64,000 nucleotides of DNA, taken from positions 445,047-509,046 of the forward strand of contig CAVVAD010000002.1 in assembly GCA_963746105.1 (NCBI GenBank). The letters are read 5' to 3'. Shown one piece after another: positions 1-62,930 of this stretch (positions are counted from its first letter, which is position 1; the number at the start of each line of letters is the position of its first letter). Origin of the DNA: an uncultured beta proteobacterium. Lineage in GTDB: Bacteria > Pseudomonadota > Gammaproteobacteria > Burkholderiales > Gallionellaceae. The notes beneath the pieces are model-generated. The model did no database searches. It worked only from the letters and a program-made list of their open reading frames with translations, and had not been told where the DNA came from. Made by a program: the position numbers and the translations under genes.

Positions 1-1
1 C

Positions 2-199
2 TCGGTTCGCGACCGCGGGCTGAACGGCGTGGTGTGCGGCCATATCCACAGCGCCGCGATCAAGCAGGTCGGCGAGCTGTTGTACATCAATTGCGGAGAC
101 TGGGTGGACAGCTGCACCGCGATCGTCGAGCATCTGGATGGCCGGCTGGAGCTGATCGAATGGCGCAGCGCCAAGCCTCAGGGCGGAGACAGGATCTGA
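2..199 (+). CDS. 3' end of a calcineurin-like metallophosphoesterase (PlcP / LpxH2-like, often annotated UDP-2,3-diacylglucosamine diphosphatase); runs off the window start
   Basis: Frame 2 translated by hand: SVRDRGLNGVVCGHIHSAAIKQVGELLYINCGDWVDSCTAIVEHLDGRLELIEW...TGA at 197-199. The GVVCGHIH and N(C)GDWV.SCTA.VE motifs match this family. Absent from the ORF track. Confidence 0.8.
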   Translation, partial: SVRDRGLNGVVCGHIHSAAIKQVGELLYINCGDWVDSCTAIVEHLDGRLELIEWRSAKPQGGDRI

Positions 200-919: not shown

Positions 920-1972
920 TCAGGCTTCCCCGGCAACTCCGCGGCTGCGCTGTCTGCCCAGCTGGTACCAGTGTTGCGAGGCATTGGCGATCTTCACCAC
1001 CAGCAGCATCACCGGCACTTCGACCAGCACCCCGACCACGGTGGCCAGCGCCGCGCCGGACTGGAAGCCATACAGGCTGATCGCGGTGGCCACCGCCAGC
1101 TCGAAGAAATTGCTCGCGCCGATCAGCGCCGACGGTGCGGCGACACAGTGCACCACGCCCAGGCGCCGGTTCAGCCAGTAGGCCAGCCCCGCGTTGAACA
1201 GCACCTGGATCAGGATGGGCACGGCCAGCAGCGCGATCACCAGCGGCTGGGCGACGATGGCATTGCCTTGCAGCGCGAACAGCAGCACCAGCGTCAACAG
1301 CAGCGCGCCCATGGACAACGGCGCGATCGTCTCCAGCGCCCGTTTGAACGCCGCTGCGCCGTGCGCCAGCAGCTTGCGGCGCAGCAGTTGCGCGAGGATG
1401 ACCGGGATCACGATGTAAAACACCACCGACACGAACAGCGTATCCCATGGCACGCTGATGCTGGCGATGCCGAGCAACAGCGCCACCAGCGGGGCGAAGG
1501 CGAAGATCATGATGGTGTCGTTGAGCGCCACTTGCGACAGCGTGAAATACGGGTCGCCTTTCACCAGCTGGCTCCACACGAACACCATCGCGGTGCAGGG
1601 TGCGGCGGCCAGCAGGATCAGTCCGGCGATATAGCTGTCGAGCTGGTCGTGCGGCAGCCAGGCGGCAAACACATGGCGGATGAACAGCCAGCCGAGAACA
1701 GCCATCGAAAACGGTTTCACGCCCCAGTTGATGAACAGCGTCACGGCGATGCCGCGGCGCTGCGCCCTGACCTGATGCAGCGCGCCGAAATCGATCTTCA
1801 GCAGCATCGGGATGATCATCACCCACACCAGCACGCCCACCGGGATGTTGACCCTGGCGATCTCCAGGCCGGCGATCGCATGGAACACGCCCGGCAGGAA
1901 TTGGCCGAGCAGTACGCCGACGAAGATGCACAGCGCGACCCAGAGGGTCAGATAGCGCTCGAAAAGATTCAT
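920..1972 (-). CDS. acr3: ACR3-family arsenite efflux transporter
   Basis: FERYLTLWVALCI, INWGVKPFSM, AAAPCTAMVFVWS, GASNFFELAVA and GVLVEVPVML motifs. Confidence 0.97.
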   Translation of the reverse strand: MNLFERYLTLWVALCIFVGVLLGQFLPGVFHAIAGLEIARVNIPVGVLVWVMIIPMLLKIDFGALHQVRAQRRGIAVTLFINWGVKPFSMAVLGWLFIRHVFAAWLPHDQLDSYIAGLILLAAAPCTAMVFVWSQLVKGDPYFTLSQVALNDTIMIFAFAPLVALLLGIASISVPWDTLFVSVVFYIVIPVILAQLLRRKLLAHGAAAFKRALETIAPLSMGALLLTLVLLFALQGNAIVAQPLVIALLAVPILIQVLFNAGLAYWLNRRLGVVHCVAAPSALIGASNFFELAVATAISLYGFQSGAALATVVGVLVEVPVMLLVVKIANASQHWYQLGRQRSRGVAGEA

Positions 1973-1975
1973 GAC

Positions 1976-2473
1976 TTAATCCTCGATGCGGCCGATCTCG
2001 GCGAGTTTTTCCTTCAGCGCGAGCCGGTCCAGTTTCTCGATCGGTAGACTCATGAACAGCTGAATGCGCCGCGCCAGTTGTTCGTAGGCGCGCCTGAAGG
2101 CGGCACGCCTTGCCTCATCGCCCTCGACATGCGCCGGGTCCGGGATACCCCAGTGTGCCGTGGCCGGCCTGCCCGGCCAGACCGGGCAAACCTCACCCGC
2201 GGCGTTGTCGCACACGGTAAAGATGAAATCGAATTCCGGCGCGCCGGGCGCGGCGAACTCGTCCCAGCTCTTGCTGCGCAACCCGCCGACAGCATAGCCG
2301 CGCTGCTGCAACAGTTCCAGCGCGCCGGGATTCACTGCTCCGGCCGGCTTGCTGCCCGCGCTATAAGCCCTGAACCGGCCCTTGCCCATGCTATTGAACA
2401 GCACCTCGCCCAGTATGCTGCGCGCCGAATTGCCGGTGCACAGCACCAGTACCTTGTATTGCCTTTCACTCAT
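1976..2473 (-). CDS. arsC: Arsenate reductase, thioredoxin-coupled LMW-PTP type
   Basis: VLCTGNSARS P-loop, TVCDNAAGEVCPVWPG, HWGIPDPA; lies between arsR and acr3. Confidence 0.95.
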   Translation of the reverse strand: MSERQYKVLVLCTGNSARSILGEVLFNSMGKGRFRAYSAGSKPAGAVNPGALELLQQRGYAVGGLRSKSWDEFAAPGAPEFDFIFTVCDNAAGEVCPVWPGRPATAHWGIPDPAHVEGDEARRAAFRRAYEQLARRIQLFMSLPIEKLDRLALKEKLAEIGRIED

Positions 2474-2524
2474 TTTTGTTTCCCCGGTAAATTATCGGCA
2501 TTGCTTGCTCAGTATTTTTTTGGT

Positions 2525-2848
2525 TCAGCATTTTTGGCCGGGCACCCTGCAGGCATCCGCATTCCCGCCGCAACAGTTCTCCGTCAGGTAATCCACCATC
2601 CCGTTCATCACCGCAAAGTTCGCCGCGTAGTAGATGAAGCGCCCATCCTGCTTGCTCTCCACCAATCCGGCATGGCTCAACGTCCTGAAGTGAAACGACA
2701 GCGTCGCCGGCGCCACTTTCAGCCTTTCGGCTATCTGCCCCGCCGCCAGGCCCTCCGGCCCATGCTCCACCAGCAAGCGGTAGATCGCCAGCCGCGTGGG
2801 TTGCGCCAGTGCCGACAGCGCCTTGACCACTTGATTCGGTTTCATCAT
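2525..2848 (-). CDS. arsR: ArsR/SmtB repressor with C-terminal CC As(III) site
   Basis: ALAQPTRLAIYRLLV HTH, LSFH, and C-terminal LTENCCGG...C. Confidence 0.95.
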   Translation of the reverse strand: MMKPNQVVKALSALAQPTRLAIYRLLVEHGPEGLAAGQIAERLKVAPATLSFHFRTLSHAGLVESKQDGRFIYYAANFAVMNGMVDYLTENCCGGNADACRVPGQKC

Positions 2849-2859
2849 TTTACATTTCC

Positions 2860-2872
2860 ATTGTTAAACAAT
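2860..2872. promoter_or_regulatory. Candidate ArsR operator
   Basis: Perfect inverted repeat ATTGTT-A-AACAAT 12 bp upstream of the arsR start in an AT-rich tract. Confidence 0.5.
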
Positions 2873-2929
2873 TATTAAAACGACAGGCGCAATTGAAACA
2901 GAAATCAGCCGGTTGTTCAACTCTATTGG

Positions 2930-3820
2930 CTAGGCATGGTCTGATAAAGCGCAAACCAGACTGCCGGTTTCAATCTGGATGGTGGCGTGCTCGATGGCGA
3001 AATTGTCATGCAATGCCTCCGCCACGCGGTTGAGAAAATCATCTCCCGGATGCCCGTCACGCATGACCAGATGCACGGTCAGTGCGATATCGGACGAACT
3101 CATCGCCCACACATGCAGGTCATGCACTGCGCTGACGCCGGGCAGGGCTGACAGGTAATTTTTCACCGCATCCAATTCGATCGAGGCGGGTACGCCGTCC
3201 AGCGTAAGGTGCAGGGACTGGCGCAGCAGCCCCCAGGTGCCCAGCAAGATCACCACGGCGATCACCAGGCTGAGCGCCGGGTCCAGCCAGGTCCAGCCAG
3301 TCCGGATAAATACCGCACCCGCGATGACCACGCCGAGTGAAACCAGCGCGTCCGCCGCCATGTGCAGAAACGCGCCGCGCAGGTTGAGGTCATCCTTGTT
3401 GCCCGACATGAACAGCCAGGCGGTGATGCCGTTGATCGCCACACCGGCAGCAGCGACCAGCATCACGATGCCGCCCTGGATCGGAACCGGGTGCGAGAAC
3501 CGGGAGATGGCCTCCCACGCGATGCCGCCTACCGCGACCAGCAGAATCAGCGCATTGAACAATGCGGCCAGTATCGTCGCGCGGCCCCAGCCGTAAGTGT
3601 GCTTGCGGTTGGGGCGCAAGCGTGCCAGATAAAACCCTCCCCATGCCATCAGCAATCCCAGCACGTCGCTCAGGTTGTGTCCGGCATCGGAGAGCAGCGC
3701 GAGCGATGCCGCCTGCCAGCCGTAGAACGCCTCGACCAGCACGAACACCACGTTCAGCGCGATGCCGATAACAAAAGCGCGGTCATAGTTTGCGGCGTGG
3801 CTGTGGGAGTGTGCGCTCAT
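2930..3820 (-). CDS. Cation diffusion facilitator (CzcD/ZitB-like Zn/Co/Cd efflux)
   Basis: His-rich N-terminus, LLSDAGHNLSD, NLRGAFLHMAADAL, HDLHVW, HATIQIE. Confidence 0.93.
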   Translation of the reverse strand: MSAHSHSHAANYDRAFVIGIALNVVFVLVEAFYGWQAASLALLSDAGHNLSDVLGLLMAWGGFYLARLRPNRKHTYGWGRATILAALFNALILLVAVGGIAWEAISRFSHPVPIQGGIVMLVAAAGVAINGITAWLFMSGNKDDLNLRGAFLHMAADALVSLGVVIAGAVFIRTGWTWLDPALSLVIAVVILLGTWGLLRQSLHLTLDGVPASIELDAVKNYLSALPGVSAVHDLHVWAMSSSDIALTVHLVMRDGHPGDDFLNRVAEALHDNFAIEHATIQIETGSLVCALSDHA

Positions 3821-4023
3821 ACGACACCCTTGCAGCGAGGGACGCTGCCATGGGTATCGATACGCACCAGATCAACCTGAAATATCATTTTTATCCTGTG
3901 TTCGCTCATCGCTTGGTCATTGTGAAAATAATTGCCACCAGCGCTTTCGATTATCGGGATGCCGCTCTCGATGAGCGCCGGTTGCGGGATACTACACAGC
4001 AGTCAGTAATAAAGACGACAGAT

Positions 4024-4091
4024 GTAGGGTGGATAAGCGAAGCGCATCCACCAAAGCGCTTTGGTGGATGCGCTTCGCTTATCCACCCTAC
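4024..4091. repeat. GTAG-type REP doublet (perfect 68-bp palindrome)
   Basis: GTAGGGTGGATAAGCGAAGCGCATCCACCAAAGC is followed directly by its exact reverse complement; each half has an internal GGTGGAT/ATCCACC hairpin. Confidence 0.9.
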
Positions 4092-4107
4092 GTTACTCAC
4101 GGCATCC

Positions 4108-4539
4108 TCAGCTTGAAAAAAGCTGCCACCAGCGCTTGCGATTATTGGGCGTTGGCGCATGGGTCTCGATCAACGCGGGCGGCTCGGTACTGAGTATCCA
4201 GCCCGGCGGCGAGGGCGTTGTATCACGGCTACAGGAAGAGCCCATGTTACCCGGATCATAGACCTTGATCAGCGTCGGCTGCTCCACATCGTCGGCATAG
4301 ACGATGCCGCAGTAGTGGTAATCATGTTCACTATGCAACAACCGGTTCAGCGCATCGATGCGCGCCGCGAGTTCGCCGCCGCCCAGTGCTTCTTCCGGCA
4401 CATCCTCGCCCACCTGGTAAAAGAACCATAGGCCGGGTTTGACACGCGCCCACAACTCGTCGAGCTGCTGCCATTGCAGGATGCCTGAAAAGGTTCCTTT
4501 CAGGCGCGCATGAAAAGCTTCTGCTGCGGTGCTGTCCAT
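4108..4539 (-). CDS. Conserved-looking hypothetical protein with CGIVY...YDP.N.GSSC motif
   Basis: 143-aa ORF with protein-like composition and C-terminal RKRWWQLF; function not recognised. Confidence 0.7.
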   Translation of the reverse strand: MDSTAAEAFHARLKGTFSGILQWQQLDELWARVKPGLWFFYQVGEDVPEEALGGGELAARIDALNRLLHSEHDYHYCGIVYADDVEQPTLIKVYDPGNMGSSCSRDTTPSPPGWILSTEPPALIETHAPTPNNRKRWWQLFSS

Positions 4540-4588
4540 ATCATCCCCATATCATTATTGATACTTCCATAATTCATGACACCCTTGC

Positions 4589-4709
4589 CGTTATTGCGAA
4601 CGAAGTGAAGAAATCCAGCAAGACCAAAGTGCATTTTGGCTAAATCACCTGGATTCGCGCTTGTCCGAGGGACAGTTTATCCTGAGTCCATCGAAGGACG
4701 GGAATGACG
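4589..4709. repeat. Degenerate CGTCATT...AATGACG-type palindromic intergenic repeat
   Basis: Outer CGTTATT/AATGACG and inner AATCCAG (4612-4618)/CTGGATT (4649-4655) inverted pairs. Confidence 0.55.
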
Positions 4710-4776
4710 TGCCAGTTTTTTAATTTCTCCTTACCGCATTCCGCAAGATGCGTCACCGTCATCAAATATGGAAACC

Positions 4777-5007
4777 TCAATAGAATAACCAGCCGGCGAT
4801 CTTGTCGCGGCCCGGCATACCGCATGCAACACTTTTCCCTCCACCACCGCGCCGGCCGTGGATATGATGCCATAAGCCATGATGTCCCGGACCTGCCCGA
4901 CTTTCCCCTGCCGGATTTCGATGCCCTTTTATTTGGCGGCAGTCTCGACCAGTTTCAGCCTGGTCCTGCAGTTGCACACCTGTGCCGAGAACTTCGATGC
5001 TTTTCAT
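4777..5007 (-). pseudogene. Degraded small thioredoxin-like redox-active disulfide protein (MTH895/TM0996-type)
   Basis: MKSIEVLGTG, frameshift, CNCRTRLKLVETAAK-stop-KGIEI...DIMAYGIISTAGAVVEGKVLHA, frameshift, GMPGRDKIAGWL. Two frameshifts plus one internal stop. Confidence 0.75.
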
Positions 5008-17358: not shown

Positions 17359-17467
17359 ACAGGGCAGTGCGGTTGCGCTGTCAACCGAACCATCGCACAG
17401 CGCGTTATAGGCACCGACACGGTAGTGTCTTAAACGTTTATCAATCTACTACAAATTGGAGTTTACA

Positions 17468-17686
17468 ATGAGCAAACTGTTATCCGTACTGATCGCTGCT
17501 GTATTTGCTGCTGTTTCTTTCTCTGCTGTTGCAGCTGACGCTGCTGCTCCTGCCGCTGCACCAGCCATGGCTGCTCCTGCAAAAGCTGAAAAGAAAGAAG
17601 AGAAGAAAGAAAAGAAGAAAGAAAAGAAAGCTCACAAAGCAAAAAAAGCAAAAAAAGCAAAAAAAGCTGAAGCCGCTGCCAAGTAA
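17468..17686 (+). CDS. Small exported Ala/Lys-rich protein (Asr-like composition)
   Basis: GGAG RBS, Sec signal ending AVA-A, mature part AAP.. then KKEEKKEKKKEKKAHKAKKAKKAKK; own terminator. Confidence 0.8.
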   Translation: MSKLLSVLIAAVFAAVSFSAVAADAAAPAAAPAMAAPAKAEKKEEKKEKKKEKKAHKAKKAKKAKKAEAAAK

Positions 17687-17740: not shown

Positions 17741-18193
17741 ATGAAAGTGATCTGGAAACCCAACGTTACGGTCGCTGCAGTCATCGAGGACCAGGGAAGA
17801 TTCCTGCTGGTCGAAGAAGAAACTGCTCAAGGATTGCGCTACAACCAGCCTGCCGGACATCTCGAGGCGGGAGAATCGCTGCTGGATGCCGTAGTACGCG
17901 AAACGCTGGAAGAATCGGCCTACCACTTCATTCCGCAGCACCTGCTCGGCATTTATCGCTGGCATTCCGGCGAATCGGACACCACCTTCCTGCGCTTTGC
18001 CTTCACCGGTCAAATCACCGGGCATGAGCCTGGCCGCAAGCTCGACAGCGGTATACTGCAAACCTTATGGCTGTCTCCCGCAGAAATCCTTGCCACCCGC
18101 TCCCGCCACCGCAGCCCGCTGATATTGCGTTGCGTGGAAGATCATATTGCGGGAAGGCGTTATCCCCTGGAGTCACTGATTGACTATGGCTAA
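17741..18193 (+). CDS. nudJ: NUDIX hydrolase (NudJ/YmfB-like)
   Basis: [36 protein letters not shown]; conserved position upstream of mnmA-purB. Confidence 0.85.
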
Positions 18194-19388
18194 ACGTGTC
18201 GTGGTGGGCATGTCCGGCGGGGTGGATTCCTCGGTCACCGCCTTGCTGCTCAAGCAGCAGGGCTACGACGTGGTCGGCCTGTTCATGAAGAACTGGGAAG
18301 ACGACGACAACGACGAATATTGTTCTACGCGCCAGGACTTGCTGGATGCAGTCTCGGTCGCCGACACCATCGGCATCCCGATCGAGGCAGTGAACTTCTC
18401 CAGGGAATACAAGGAACGCGTATTCAGCTCCTTCCTGCACGAATATCAGGCCGGGCGCACCCCCAACCCCGATATCCTGTGCAATGCAGAAATCAAGTTC
18501 AAGGCGTTTCTCGACCACGCGATGCAACTCGGGGCCGGCAAAATCGCCACCGGACATTATGCGCAAGTGCGCGAGGTGAATGGCCTGTTCCAATTGCTCA
18601 AGGCCGATGACGGCAGCAAGGACCAGAGCTACTTTTTGCATCGCCTGAATCAGATGCAGCTGAGCCATGCGCTGTTTCCGCTGGGAAAACTGCTGAAGTC
18701 GGAAGTGCGCGACATCGCAAAACGGCATGGCCTGCCCAATCACGCCAAGCGTGACAGCACCGGTATCTGCTTCATCGGCGAGCGCCCGTTCCGCGAATTC
18801 CTGAATCGCTATCTGCCGACCCAGCCGGGGGAAATGTGGGCCCCCGGCACCTTAGCCGGCAGGCCCGGTTGCGGGAGGAGCTCCAATGTGGTTGCTCCCA
18901 CAACTGAGTGCTCCGCACCACCGTCTCGCAACCCCACTCCGGAAGGCCATGTGGTCGGGCAGCACATCGGCCTGTCGTTCTATACGATAGGCCAGCGCCA
19001 GGGTCTGGGCATAGGCGGAGCCAGGCAGGCTTCCGGAGAGCCGTGGTTCGTCGCGGGCAAGGATATCGCCAACAATCGCCTGATCGTGGTGCAGGGGCAT
19101 GACCACCCCGCACTGCTTGCCAGGCGTTTGACTGCGCTGGACAGCCACTGGATCAGCGGTTCCGCACCGCTGCTCGATCATCCCTATGCCGCCAAGACGC
19201 GCTACCGGCAGGCCGATGCACCCTGCCGGCTCACCCGCGTCGAGGGCAATTCCTGCGAGATCGAGTTTGACCAGGCGCAGTGGGCCGTGACGCCGGGACA
19301 ATCGGTGGTCGTCTACGACGGCGCCGTCTGTCTGGGAGGAGCAATCATCGAACAAGGCAGCGTATTCATGGAACAAAGGCCGGGCTGA
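18186..19388 (+). CDS. mnmA: tRNA 2-thiouridylase MnmA carrying an in-frame insertion of about 32 aa
   Basis: [56 protein letters not shown]. Confidence 0.98.
18840..18935 (+). repeat. 96-bp repeat-derived in-frame insert in mnmA
   Basis: Interrupts PGEMW|TPEG; contains CCGGTTGCGGGAG, the exact reverse complement of MITE 62078-62090; internal hairpin GTTGCGGGAG...CTCCCACAAC. Confidence 0.75.
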
Positions 19389-60428: not shown

Positions 60429-60767
60429 ATGAACTCTGCAAACGACTTGACCAGCAGGCAATGCAAGCCCAGTACGCCGGGCTCGCTTCCGCTATCAAAC
60501 TCCGAGGCGGACAAGCTGATGCGGCAACTCGAAGGCTGGAAACATTACGATCACCTTATCGGGAAGACTTACCATTTCAAGAATTACTACGAGACCATCG
60601 CATTCGTCAACGCCGTCGCATGGCTTTCACACGGCGAAGACCACCACCCGGAACTCACCGTCACCTATAACAGCTGCCAGGTCGAATATACCACCCACTC
60701 GATCCACGGCCTTTCTGAAAATGACTTCATCTGCGCTGCAAAAGTGGACGCGCTGTTCAAGATTTGA
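60429..60767 (+). CDS. phhB: Pterin-4-alpha-carbinolamine dehydratase
   Basis: FKNYYETIAFVN, EDHHPEL, THSIHGLSENDFICAAKVD. Confidence 0.93.
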   Translation: MNSANDLTSRQCKPSTPGSLPLSNSEADKLMRQLEGWKHYDHLIGKTYHFKNYYETIAFVNAVAWLSHGEDHHPELTVTYNSCQVEYTTHSIHGLSENDFICAAKVDALFKI

Positions 60768-61906
60768 GCGAGCTTTTGCACGGCCAGGTTATCGCCGCAT
60801 TCGGCCGCCAGTATCTGGTGCGGCTGGATGACGGCAGCGCAATAGCCTGCCTGACGCGCGGCAAAAAAAGTGAAGTGGCCTGCGGCGATCTGGTGGAAGT
60901 CAAACGCACCGCAGCAGCCACATCCGCAAATGACACAGGCGCACAGGGCGTAATCGAACATATCGCACCGCGCCACTCGCTGCTGCATCGCTCGGATGCG
61001 TTCCGCGAAAAACTCATCGCCGCCAACGTCACCCAGATCATCGTCGTAGTCGCCGCCGAACCTTCGTTCAGCGACGAACTGCTGGCACGTTGTCTGGTCG
61101 CGGCTTTCGATCAGAAACTCGAGGTGCTGATCGTGCTGAACAAATGCGACCTGCCCGATGCCGCAGCCGCCGCGCGCAAACGGCTGATCCCCTATTCCGC
61201 CATCGGCTATCGCGTGCTGGAACTCAGTGCCAAAAATCCTACCAGCCCCTCCGGGCTGGAAAATGCTGAACAACCTGCCCGTCGTAAACTGGAGGGACGA
61301 TTGCCGCCTGTCCCCGAAGGGGGGAGGATTGTGGAGGGGGTGGATGCCCTGCGCCCATTCCTGATTGGCCACACCAGCGTGCTGGTTGGGCAATCCGGCA
61401 TGGGCAAATCCACGCTGATCAATGCGCTGCTGCCCGATGCACAGGCCGCCACCCGTGAGATATCCGCGGTGCTGGATTCCGGCAAGCACACCACCACCCA
61501 CGCGAGGCTGTACCGGATTGATGATGGCGCGGCTGCGACACGTTACCGCGAAGCGGCCGATTGCACCCGCAAGGAGTACGCCGGCGGGTACCCGGCAGCT
61601 TCGCTGCCACCCTACCGCAACGTGAACAGCCGCCAGACACCCATCCCTCACCAGGAGGCTCCGCCACACCGTGTCGGGGTGTCCGGATTAATCGACTGCC
61701 CCGGTGTGCAAGCCTTCGGCCTGCATCACCTGAGCTTCGGCGGGATAGAACAGGGCTTTGTGGAATTCGCGCAGTATCTCGGCCAGTGCCGCTTTCACGA
61801 CTGCCGCCACGCGCATGAACCCGGCTGCGCGCTGCGCGCTGCGGTTGCACAAGGAAAGATCGCTGCGCGCAGGCTGGAGCTGTTCCGGCAGATCGCCGGC
61901 AAGTAG
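60764..61906 (+). CDS. rsgA: Ribosome small subunit-dependent GTPase RsgA carrying two in-frame insertions
   Basis: TTG start; AANVTQ, VLNKCDL, GQSGMGKSTLIN, GKHTTT, IDCPG, C-terminal CRFHDCRHAHEPGC zinc site. Confidence 0.96.
   Translation: MSELLHGQVIAAFGRQYLVRLDDGSAIACLTRGKKSEVACGDLVEVKRTAAATSANDTGAQGVIEHIAPRHSLLHRSDAFREKLIAANVTQIIVVVAAEPSFSDELLARCLVAAFDQKLEVLIVLNKCDLPDAAAAARKRLIPYSAIGYRVLELSAKNPTSPSGLENAEQPARRKLEGRLPPVPEGGRIVEGVDALRPFLIGHTSVLVGQSGMGKSTLINALLPDAQAATREISAVLDSGKHTTTHARLYRIDDGAAATRYREAADCTRKEYAGGYPAASLPPYRNVNSRQTPIPHQEAPPHRVGVSGLIDCPGVQAFGLHHLSFGGIEQGFVEFAQYLGQCRFHDCRHAHEPGCALRAAVAQGKIAARRLELFRQIAGK
61235..61330 (+). repeat. 96-bp inverted-repeat-bounded in-frame insert 1 in rsgA
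   Basis: Left AATCCTACCAGCCCCTCCGGG vs right CCCCGAAGGGGGGAGGATT; encodes NPTSPSG...PEGGRI. Confidence 0.7.
61526..61678 (+). repeat. In-frame insert 2 in rsgA (about 50 aa), homologous to the MITE internal module
   Basis: GCGGCTGCGACACGTTAC (61529-61546) is the exact reverse complement of GTAACGTGTCGCAGCCGC at 62101-62118 and 62296-62313. Confidence 0.8.
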
Positions 61907-61925
61907 CCGCTCAATATTTGTTTAG

Positions 61926-62389
61926 GGAACCTCTGATTAAGTCCCACATGGCCGCGCACTCGGTTTTGCGGGATGGGATGCAAGGCGCGCGAGGCAGCGA
62001 ATGGTTGATCCCCTTCGTGAGCAGCCCTGACACGGGGCGGCGCAGCCGTGCGGTGCGGGAAGGGCTGCCAGCGGCTGCTCCCGCAACCGGCTGCTACGGA
62101 GTAACGTGTCGCAGCCGCAGTGCAACGCAGCAGACCGCCCGCAAAACCAGTGCCCACAGGGGTTGCGACAAAATCGCGCGCTCGCGGCGTTGTGCTCCTC
62201 GGCATCGTAGTCCCGGCTGCCGCCATGACACGGTGCGCGTAGCGTCGGTGCGGGAGTGGCGGCAGGCGGCTGCTCCCGCAAGCGGCTGCTACGCAGTAAC
62301 GTGTCGCAGCCGCTACCTTCGTCGCACGCCTTGCGATCATCGCGATTTTGTCAGCAACGCGGCTCATGGAGGACTTAATCAGAGGTTCC
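61926..62389. mobile_element. 464-bp non-autonomous IS5-like MITE
   Basis: Perfect 19-bp TIRs GGAACCTCTGATTAAGTCC / GGACTTAATCAGAGGTTCC; 4-bp TTAG direct repeats at 61922-61925 and 62390-62393; no transposase. Confidence 0.9.
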
Positions 62390-62930
62390 TTAGTCCCAAC
62401 TGCCGCCAACCCTGGTGCCCCAGCTTGTTCAGCGTCTCGACATTGTTGTCGGCGATCTGTTCGGCATCCGGAAAAGCCGCCACGGCGCGATCCACACTTG
62501 TTTCGCGCAGCAAGTGCAGCGTGGGGTAAGGCGAACGGTTGGTGTAATTCTCGATGTCTTCCGGCGCGGTGCCGGTGAACTGATACTGTGGATGCAGGCT
62601 GGCAACCTGGAATGCGTCTTTGAATTCCGGTTCTGCCACCGCAAGATCGACCGTGTCCAGAAAATCGTTGAAATCGAGGAAGTCGGTCAGCACATGGGGA
62701 TGGATCAGCAACGTGGTCTCGACCTTGTCGGGATCGGCATGTTGCAGCGCACGCAGCTCTGTCATCAAATCCTCCAGCAAGGCCTCGGGCGTGGTTGCCG
62801 CGCTGACCGCATAGCGTATCTGCTTCCTGACATGCACCGCTTTGGCAAAGGGGCAGAGGTTCAGGCCGATCACGGCTTTTTCCAGCCAATGTTGCGTGAC
62901 GGCGATGACGGTTTCGGCTTCGGTCAGCAT
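62379..62930 (-). CDS. DUF1415 family protein (stop codon supplied by the MITE end)
   Basis: WLEKAVIGLNLCPFAK, ETTLLIHP, FLDFNDFL, QVASLHP, YTNRSPYPTLHLLRE. Confidence 0.9.
   Translation of the reverse strand: MLTEAETVIAVTQHWLEKAVIGLNLCPFAKAVHVRKQIRYAVSAATTPEALLEDLMTELRALQHADPDKVETTLLIHPHVLTDFLDFNDFLDTVDLAVAEPEFKDAFQVASLHPQYQFTGTAPEDIENYTNRSPYPTLHLLRETSVDRAVAAFPDAEQIADNNVETLNKLGHQGWRQLGLRNL

Follow-up and report, generated by a model that had tools for sequence, protein, structure and literature searches.

A palindromic repeat inserted in frame in mnmA of an uncultured Gallionellaceae bacterium, probably one copy of a repeat family spread through Gallionellaceae chromosomes

Introduction

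Palindromes that are inserted in frame in protein-coding genes on a large scale have hitherto, to our knowledge, been regarded as a peculiarity of Rickettsia. Here we describe a 96-nt block inserted in frame in mnmA, the gene for tRNA 2-thiouridine(34) synthase, in a 64,000 nt stretch of DNA (the window; positions 445,047 to 509,046 of contig CAVVAD010000002.1, GenBank assembly GCA_963746105.1) from an uncultured member of the Gallionellaceae. We interpret the block as a resident copy, decayed to some extent, of a family of small, non-autonomous palindromic repeats that is spread through Gallionellaceae chromosomes and is tolerated in frame, an interpretation to which we assign a probability of about 80%.

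Rickettsia palindromic elements (RPEs) are inserted in frame in many genes (Ogata et al. 2000 Science 290:347; Ogata et al. 2002 Genome Res 12:808, both as cited in passages of PMC10969869 and PMC3733652). A second relevant group is the superfamily of CGTC-tagged repetitive extragenic palindromic sequences (REPs). In passages of Di Nocera et al. 2013 (PMC3733652), these are described as units of 20-40 bp in which a stem of 8-9 bp carries a loop of 4-5 nt, and the superfamily includes RPE-4, RPE-6 and the Neisseria dRS3. According to the same passages, intragenic REPs often lie in replication and repair genes, no dedicated transposase was found, and Sideroxydans lithotrophicus ES-1 is CGTC-positive, with no intragenic copies listed there for Sideroxydans.

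By analogy, RPEs and CGTC-tagged REPs are the closest known kinds, and we file the Gallionellaceae repeat as RPE- or CGTC-REP-like, not as a demonstrated member of either. As far as the cited passages describe RPEs, both families are multi-copy palindromes of roughly 100-150 bp (96-99 nt in the Gallionellaceae), both have a large share of their copies in frame within unrelated housekeeping genes, which remain open and seemingly functional, with characteristic peptides for each family, and neither has a known dedicated transposase. The likeness is one of description, and the hosts differ, being an obligate intracellular alphaproteobacterium in the case of RPEs and free-living betaproteobacterial iron oxidizers here. 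A search of a literature collection found no paper joining the Gallionellaceae with the terms MITE (miniature inverted-repeat transposable element), REP or REPIN (REP doublet forming a hairpin).

The insert in mnmA

The host gene and the inserted copy occupy the following positions in the window.

18186-19388, plus strand: mnmA (tRNA 2-thiouridine(34) synthase), host gene, 400 aa; from the open reading frame (ORF) list, Pfam and Protein Data Bank (PDB) entry 2DER
18837-18935, plus strand: inserted repeat copy, 33 codons (W APGT...SRNP) in place of one codon, net +96 nt; from comparison of filled and empty DNA with L007, L008, L125 and L126, and from a covariance model match at 18834-18947

The encoded protein has the characteristics of MnmA: a PP-loop of the form SGGxDS, two catalytic cysteines and a three-domain architecture, with Pfam domains PF03054, PF20259 and PF20258 (found on the identical protein P0001). 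It is ~50% identical to E. coli MnmA (PDB 2DER, E=1e-126). The HMMER alignment keeps the PP-loop (SGGVDS) and both catalytic-Cys motifs (E. coli Cys102 and Cys199), and breaks only at the insert, falling into two unbroken blocks (query residues 2-217 on chain residues 17-233, and 251-390 on 235-374). The insert sits between chain residues 233 and 235, a site that is hypervariable among insert-free orthologues, which read PGEM-x-TPEG with x being R, V, I, L or one of several other residues.

An earlier note on this DNA, made from the letters alone, had proposed a 96-bp in-frame insert at this point, and the orthologue alignment confirmed a net gain of 96 nt over insert-free orthologues. At the DNA level, filled and empty mnmA alleles differ by exactly 96 nt, the block TGG...AAC; the delimitations 18840-18935 and 18837-18932 are equivalent alternatives, one codon apart. 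Empty alleles of the R type read ATG-CGC ACG CCG GA, which equals the 3' junction of the carriers. A deletion scar was considered as the origin of the R at the empty site and set aside: the DNA fits exactly (ATG-CGC ACG...), yet R also occurs often in sequences remote from carriers, and the 96-nt block has no microhomology on its flanks.

Structure of the repeat

Canonical copies, 96-99 nt long with the junction repeat included, read X - GACACGTTA CTGGC GAA GCCAG CCGATTGCGGGAG - X' - (2-3 nt) - Y - TCCCGCACC AGA GGGC TCC GCCC CACCGTGTC - Y'. They are built of two mutually inverted half-units, each consisting of a variable 8-9 bp stem (X:X' or Y:Y') around a conserved core with a small inner hairpin, and the family cores are GACACGTTA...TTGCGGGAG and TCCCGCACC...CCGTGTC. 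The 8-bp outer stems surround cores of 35 nt, the inner hairpins have stems of 4-5 bp and loops of 3-4 nt, and the two cores are related in inverted orientation (96-97% paired in helices 2 and 4).

From copy to copy, the sequences of X:X' and Y:Y' vary and their complementarity is kept. Across an alignment of 116 copies, 95.7% of cells were paired, compared with 81.4% in shuffles and 30-50% when the partner was slid. Double-sided compensatory cells numbered 575 against 146 in shuffles, and none of 500 shuffles reached as high a value. Covariation was present in all four helices, that is, in both outer stems and both inner hairpins, and intact copies fold as two adjacent hairpins. The parts of the window copy are as follows.

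18838-18845, plus strand: outer stem strand X (GGGCCCCC), partly decayed, with two non-pairs against X' (cmsearch alignment)
18846-18877, plus strand: core 1 (GGCACCTTA...CCGGTTGCGGGAG), a diverged form of GACACGTTA-inner hairpin-TTGCGGGAG, encoding ...G-C-G-R
18878-18885, plus strand: stem strand X' (GAGCTCCA) (cmsearch alignment)
18888-18895, plus strand: stem strand Y (GTGGTTGC), pairing with 18928-18935 (cmsearch alignment)
18896-18927, plus strand: core 2 (TCCCACAAC TGAGTGCTCCGCACC ACCGTCTC), inverted relative of core 1 and the best conserved part among mnmA orthologues
18928-18935, plus strand: stem strand Y' (GCAACCCC) (cmsearch alignment)

This copy has diverged from the canonical form, with GGCACCTTA for GACACGTTA, TCCCACA for TCCCGCA and the two non-pairs in stem X, and its minimum-energy fold differs from the canonical two-hairpin fold because the left stem has decayed. 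The hairpin that had been predicted for the insert DNA is nonetheless present, with fold z-scores of -3.0 to -3.9.

A repeat family of the Gallionellaceae

Membership of the family was assessed with a covariance model, R1, trained on 116 copies from other genomes; the window copy, which the search pattern does not match, played no part in the training. R1 matched the window mnmA insert over its full length (model positions 1-117, plus strand) with 67.8 bits (E=3.2e-12). Nucleotide profiles (nhmmer) built without the window copy also cross-matched, from the MITE modules described below to the mnmA insert (E=1.2e-5) and from the mnmA inserts of relatives to the MITE modules (E=2e-4 and 5e-4), and found copies in both orientations. 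The mnmA inserts of orthologues follow the pattern CGACACGTTA-N14-TTGCGGGAG-N17-CTCCCGCACC, whose blocks recur at equal spacing in both MITE modules and in part of the rsgA insert. The window holds these further copies.

62009-62122, minus strand: intergenic copy, module A, in a composite MITE-like element (R1 97.9 bits, E=2e-18; nhmmer cross-matches with mnmA inserts)
62207-62317, minus strand: intergenic copy, module B (R1 91.9 bits, E=4e-17)
61517-61695, plus strand: in-frame copy or fragments in rsgA (60764-61906), in a third frame (AAATRYREAADC...) (R1: 61591-61695, E=1e-5; 61517-61597, E~0.007)

The kinship of the insert with a MITE-internal module and an rsgA insert, as the earlier note had it, is upheld, by nhmmer and the covariance model for the module and by the covariance model for the rsgA insert. 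The 13-mer CCGGTTGCGGGAG that it had seen in both the insert and the MITE module occurs at four sites within one mismatch, compared with 0.14 expected, and is only the tip of a full-length homology. Direct reading also reproduces the 16/19 match to what it called rsgA insert 2, a segment that the family model matches as well. An orthologous RsgA insert is present in L043, confirmed by Pfam RsgA_GTPase.

The surroundings of these copies yielded several separate observations. The window RsgA, at 380 aa, is apparently longer than usual, and the repeat at 61517-61695 apparently has extra sequence inside it, with L043 showing the simple form; a second, unrelated-looking insert lies upstream in rsgA (~61240-61345, NPTSPSGLENAEQPARRKLEGRLPPVPEGGRIVEGV). 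The composite MITE-like element (61923-62392) contains the two intergenic copies between 28-nt terminal inverted repeats (TAGGGAACCTCTGATTAAGTCCCACATG, 89% complementary), starts 17 nt past the rsgA stop codon and overlaps the 3' end of an ORF at 62379-62930 (minus strand). Similar left flanks (gcgcgacg..ggtagcggct) recur in L046, L086, L102, L103, L111 and L112, so the composite exists in other genomes too. Elsewhere, two copies, in L050 (~290-406) and L072 (~1414-1530), break off just past the start of core 2 and run on into a shared unrelated sequence (GTAACCAGCGACTTGGCCAGCG...GATGrCCTAGTCGA), possibly the end of a different mobile element with the repeat as its target.

A pattern spanning the three conserved blocks found at least 115 stretches in a collection of species-representative genomes, and the family comprises at least 121 copies in at least 115 loci. 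Nearly all the matches listed are titled Gallionella, Sideroxydans, Sideroxyarcus, Ferriphaselus, Ferrigenium or unclassified Gallionellaceae/Nitrosomonadales metagenome-assembled genomes (MAGs). Among them, only L024 (a Sulfuricaulis sp. MAG) and L052 (a Burkholderiales MAG) are titled outside the Gallionellaceae/Nitrosomonadales; both carry common subfamily variants, and mis-binned contigs and transfer are both possible. Searches of plasmid and phage collections gave no match to the repeat and Rfam holds no family for it; an Rfam match to mir-492 was dismissed as chance (30 bits against a gathering score of 76).

In-frame copies in other genes

At 56 of the 115 loci listed, an ORF of at least 300 aa spans the element, and 26 in-gene copies belonging to ~20 different gene families were confirmed by Pfam. 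The confirmed hosts are HrpA (two sites, in opposite orientations), an Eco57I-type methylase, SucA, AceE, LigA, an RNB-family RNase (RNase R/II), AroA, a sulfite/nitrite reductase, UvrB, RecG, an epimerase, two acyl-CoA synthetases, NuoCD, an AAA ATPase, phosphoglucomutase (PGM), RsgA, M3 and M20 peptidases and MnmA.

The repeat is usually stop-free in five of its six frames, the sixth being always closed by TAA opposite GTTA. One opposite-strand frame (...RHGGAEPSGAG..LLPQSAGFASNVS...) is used by 18 verified copies, the MnmA frame (...DTLLAKPADCGR...APAPEGSAPP...) by four, the frame of PGM and RsgA by three and that of the M3 peptidase by one. The lengths of in-gene inserts are multiples of three (96 or 99 nt), and together with the frame pattern this indicates that the copies are translated and not excised. 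Removal of the segment after transcription or translation, in the manner of an intron or intein, could draw on the stable structure that joins both ends and on the short direct repeats that flank it. We give this next to no credence, as 96-99 nt is far too short for group I or group II introns or inteins, Rfam gives no match, and the length of in-gene copies is in every case divisible by three, with no stop in the host frame and the always-closed frame never used.

A peptide-profile search of a 5.8-billion-protein database returned only 18 short hypothetical ORFs and missed P0012, which has the query verbatim within it, and is therefore uninformative on host diversity. Among sequencing runs, none contained this organism; at most 19% of words were shared, and all were metagenome contigs with no RNA.

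Footprint of insertion

A filled and an empty allele could be compared at HrpA residue 1166, where L093 has two AAGGCGC motifs separated by 92 nt and L030 a single AAGGCGC, corresponding to a gain of 99 nt in which 7 bp of the target were duplicated. Stem strand X is made of this duplicate, to which the internal X' of the element is exactly complementary. The L093 HrpA gene (1005-4964, minus strand) contains two oppositely oriented copies, of which the one at aa ~404 is common to L030 and the one at aa ~1166 is not.

Direct repeats of at least 7 nt flank 28 of 117 copies (24%), against a control value of 6.6% obtained by re-pairing. All of them fall within the Y'-X junction zone, with lengths up to 13 nt (L067), and tandem arrays (L004, L058, L062 and L099) share the Y'-X junction. 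As read from these alleles, the footprint would fit integration through short homology between the target and the element junction, for example by a circular or tandem intermediate, or pairing of the target with the central X'-Y segment.

A less likely explanation, meant to account for the low divergence and patchy distribution of the copies, is that the same sites are hit repeatedly, the target matching the Y'-X junction or pairing with the X'-Y loop, in which case the mnmA inserts would be independent or converted and not one old insertion. The complementarity of the HrpA-1166 duplication to X' and the constant position of the junction repeats would both suit this explanation. In addition, the R-type empty mnmA site CGCACGCC matches the tandem junction CGCACCCC at seven of eight positions, and copies outside mnmA (L065, L082) have the same stems. 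Against it, all mnmA inserts share private features (the short inner loop GTTAGCCGnnAGGCC, a CCAAT spacer and an ECSAPP segment), as from common descent, and among HrpA-404 orthologues X varies while X' has changed to match it, a pattern that a fixed guide would hardly produce.

The insert among MnmA orthologues

The orthologue set consisted of the 120 closest MnmA sequences, gathered by protein similarity, which are 75-90% identical and all Gallionellaceae-like. The same site is filled in 27 of these Gallionella MnmA sequences and empty in the other 93. The insert is hence not private to this genome, and its history is longer and more dynamic than that of one private insertion. The earlier note had named distant betaproteobacteria with the same segment as evidence that would count against an inserted repeat; no such case was seen, the carriers among these 120 sequences being all Gallionellaceae-like.

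The 27 carriers comprise 18 single 33-aa copies, two tandem duplications (P0002 and P0003), two nested 17-aa insertions (P0009 and P0016) and five internal deletions, and P0113 is the only carrier with V and not W at the left junction. P0002 (L004:2139-3422) has two head-to-tail 96-nt copies in a MnmA of 427 aa, and the second copy of P0003 has an internal deletion. An extra in-frame insertion of 51 nt (SANSAPASAGSRLPTFSA) is nested in core 1 of the mnmA repeat in P0009 (L005:1455-2699, L006) and P0016. On a neighbour-joining tree made with the insert masked and without support values, the carriers are scattered and parsimony gives ~12 changes of state; filled and empty alleles can be close, as in L001 and L008, which are 92% identical in DNA. 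These observations would favour repeated hits at the mnmA site, but gain and loss cannot be polarized on a tree of this kind.

Among six mnmA carriers, the rest of the gene showed a synonymous divergence (pS) of ~0.5-0.6 and a ratio of nonsynonymous to synonymous divergence (pN/pS) of 0.165. Judged by its substitutions, MnmA outside the insert is under strong purifying selection. The insert had a pS of ~0.1 and a pN/pS of ~1.35, so the peptide is not under protein-level selection. What did hold is the proposal that the insert is tolerated in an otherwise intact, selected mnmA (rest-of-gene pN/pS 0.17 when rounded, with the PP-loop and both catalytic-Cys motifs present). An assembly artefact or a pseudogene, for which nothing speaks beyond the unusual protein length, is scarcely credible: the same insert occupies the same site in many independent assemblies (JGI, ENA and NCBI), and the ORF is intact with all catalytic motifs and evolves among carriers at the low ratio just given.

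The insert adds two cysteines to an enzyme that uses Cys/persulfide chemistry, to which the earlier note attached some importance. The cysteines are there in the window sequence, but the implied significance is unsupported, since orthologous inserts have Y, H or F in place of Cys-1, and F or H in place of Cys-2 or a deletion of it. Cys-1 is encoded by TGC of the invariant core TTGCGGGAG, and D-C-G-R appears in every copy read in the MnmA frame, unrelated proteins included. At the level of codons, this shows the two cysteines to be by-products of a conserved DNA core. It is very unlikely that they are an adaptive addition extending a persulfide relay or ligating a metal or Fe-S centre. That they lie ~35-50 residues downstream of the ICFIGER motif's catalytic Cys would favour such a role, but the replacements, the recurrence of Cys-1 in unrelated proteins, the pN/pS of the insert, its absence from 93 of the 120 orthologues and its predicted disorder all stand against it.

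The prediction of disorder comes from structural modelling. A first AlphaFold run, on a 28-sequence alignment, gave a mean predicted local distance difference test score (pLDDT) of 43 and was unusable. The second, with 120 sequences, reached a pLDDT of 71 and a predicted template modelling score (pTM) of 0.75, with template modelling (TM) scores of 0.75/0.83 to 2DER. The other domains are modelled with confidence; the insert, with a pLDDT of 25-41 and no regular structure, is predicted as disordered.

Slow evolution of resident copies

Third codon positions are 0.95 identical in the mnmA insert compared with 0.52-0.66 in every 30-codon bin on either side, with a sharp boundary, and the insert DNA changes four- to five-fold slower than neighbouring synonymous sites. 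This slowness at synonymous sites and the high pN/pS together indicate that the insert evolves as a nucleic-acid element and not as a peptide. Orthologous copies in HrpA, SucA, AroA, PGM, the M20 peptidase and another gene gave 91% against 60% identity after removal of pattern-forced bases, with some bias to intact copies because these pairs were ascertained by exact pattern; the mnmA set is free of such bias. Pairwise counts over orthologous copies amounted to 11 compensatory, four wobble and 20 stem-breaking changes, with site-specific stems kept. The mnmA stems form the series ACCCCC/GGGGGT to ACTCCC/GGGGGT to ACTCCC/GGGAGT. Wobbles are asymmetric between strands (G·T 44, A·C 20), possibly through mutation bias, and were not used as evidence.

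The slow evolution of resident copies could possibly reflect constraint at the nucleotide level, recurrent site-directed insertion or conversion, or both. In one form of the first explanation, copies would be kept by nucleotide-level selection for a DNA or RNA function in situ, such as a structure in the mRNA where domains meet, a signal of the protein-binding or uptake type, or a site of recombination, and the peptide would be a passenger. The third-position identity in mnmA, the comparison of the six other genes and the stem changes compensated at HrpA-404 and in the mnmA series all favour such a function, as does the richness of the host genes in genome-maintenance roles, which is also reported for intragenic REPs in passages of PMC3733652. 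We consider it unlikely, given that the insert is missing from 93 of the 120 close mnmA orthologues and partly deleted in some others, that the window copy has broken stems and a diverged core 1, that stem-breaking changes are as many as counted above, and that the pairs outside mnmA are biased to intact copies.

Other features of the window

Two features of the window lie apart from the repeat. A small ORF at 17456-17686 (plus strand), with a signal-like N-terminus followed by an Ala/Lys-rich tail (…KKEEKKEKKKEKKAHKAKKAKKAKK…), precedes a NUDIX gene and mnmA, and related loci have small ORFs of 71-89 aa at the corresponding position. A perfect 68-bp palindrome at 4024-4091 (GTAGGGTGGATAAGCGAAGCGCATCCACCAAAGC and its complement) starts with GTAG and resembles a REP/REPIN doublet from a different family; direct repeats of 54 nt lie on either side (3905-3958 and 4096-4149, 76% identical).

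Discussion

Our preferred interpretation, a non-autonomous repeat tolerated in frame, involves the following steps. The element integrates in chromosomal DNA with a short target duplication, and the duplicate becomes one strand of an outer stem. With five of six frames stop-free and a length that is a multiple of three, copies landing in permissive protein loops leave the gene open, and are translated as Pro/Ala/Gly/Ser-rich peptides of 32-33 residues. Transposition, or some other route of copying and integration, may drive the spread through single-stranded hairpins and short homology to the Y'-X junction, and copies in non-permissive sites or frames would presumably be purged by purifying selection.

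Several points weigh against this interpretation. The junction repeats vary in length (~5-13 nt) and position, a poor fit to a classical transposase with a fixed stagger. No transposase or other mobilizing function was identified and no active transposition was observed, the whole genomes not having been scanned for a matching insertion sequence or transposase. A neutral or nearly neutral effect of the insert on MnmA function is something that we infer and did not observe; the pLDDT of the model is below 50 across residues 213-279, so a surface position away from the tRNA is not demonstrated. Furthermore, resident copies that are far more conserved than flanking synonymous sites and that carry compensatory stem changes do not resemble simple neutral junk.

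These last features leave some room for a bolder and rather doubtful proposal, that the repeat is a structured DNA or RNA module of ~96 nt whose in-gene copies are actively maintained or rewritten, either by selection on the four hairpins or by homing-like integration that depends on pairing of the X'-Y loop or the Y'-X junction. If this were true, a maintained module would repeatedly write the same 32-33 codons into the same housekeeping-gene loops across a bacterial family.

Comparison with described systems places the Gallionellaceae repeat near several of them. It differs from RPEs in that its loop cores are conserved and its outer stems vary and covary, in its use of at least four reading frames on both strands, in its documented 7-bp target duplication, and in having resident copies more conserved than synonymous sites. 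Compared with CGTC-tagged REPs, as passages of PMC3733652 portray them, core 2 terminates in CGTGTC in most copies and otherwise in CGCGTC, CGTCTC or CGCCTC, resembling the CGTC/TGTC/CCTC tag, and core 1 begins with the complement GACACG. REPs of this kind form head-to-head dimers, and every Gallionellaceae copy is likewise made of two half-units in inverted orientation; intragenic copies occur often in genes for replication and repair, and no transposase association is reported there. The tag-like motifs of the Gallionellaceae repeat, however, stand just inside the outer stems and not at a free end, and its 8-bp outer stems hold a 35-nt core, which does not agree with a unit of 20-40 bp whose stem closes a loop of 4-5 nt.

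In a REPIN, two inverted REPs form one long hairpin, whereas the covariation seen here supports two side-by-side hairpins. REPINs are also essentially extragenic and mobilized by REP-associated tyrosine transposases (RAYTs), and the GTAG tag is missing from the unit ends of the Gallionellaceae repeat. The two are alike as inverted palindromic doublets of ~100 nt that behave as non-autonomous mobile DNA, with the hairpin kept by compensatory change (Bertels & Rainey; PMC3337134). With MITEs and similar elements (Coxiella QMITE1, PMC5896051; Correia and ERIC; review PMC10969869), the repeat shares ends that are inverted with respect to each other (core 1 and core 2), duplication of the target and, on occasion, translational fusion to host ORFs; it possesses terminal inverted repeats and, in the HrpA filled/empty pair, the 7-bp target duplication. 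It is not known to have a parental insertion sequence with the same ends, its junction repeats are variable in length, and the share of copies in frame within genes is far higher than is usual for MITEs.

The occurrence of a comparable, structurally well-defined system in free-living, environmentally important iron oxidizers indicates that in-frame palindromes are a broader phenomenon, not tied to reductive intracellular genomes. The family provides many natural pairs of filled and empty alleles in conserved enzymes (MnmA, HrpA, LigA, UvrB and others) for the study of loop-insertion tolerance, and offers mechanistic handles in its covarying stems, its target duplication and the complementarity between target and element interior. 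It also explains length heterogeneity and odd 'low-complexity' loops in the protein annotations and MAGs of the Gallionellaceae.

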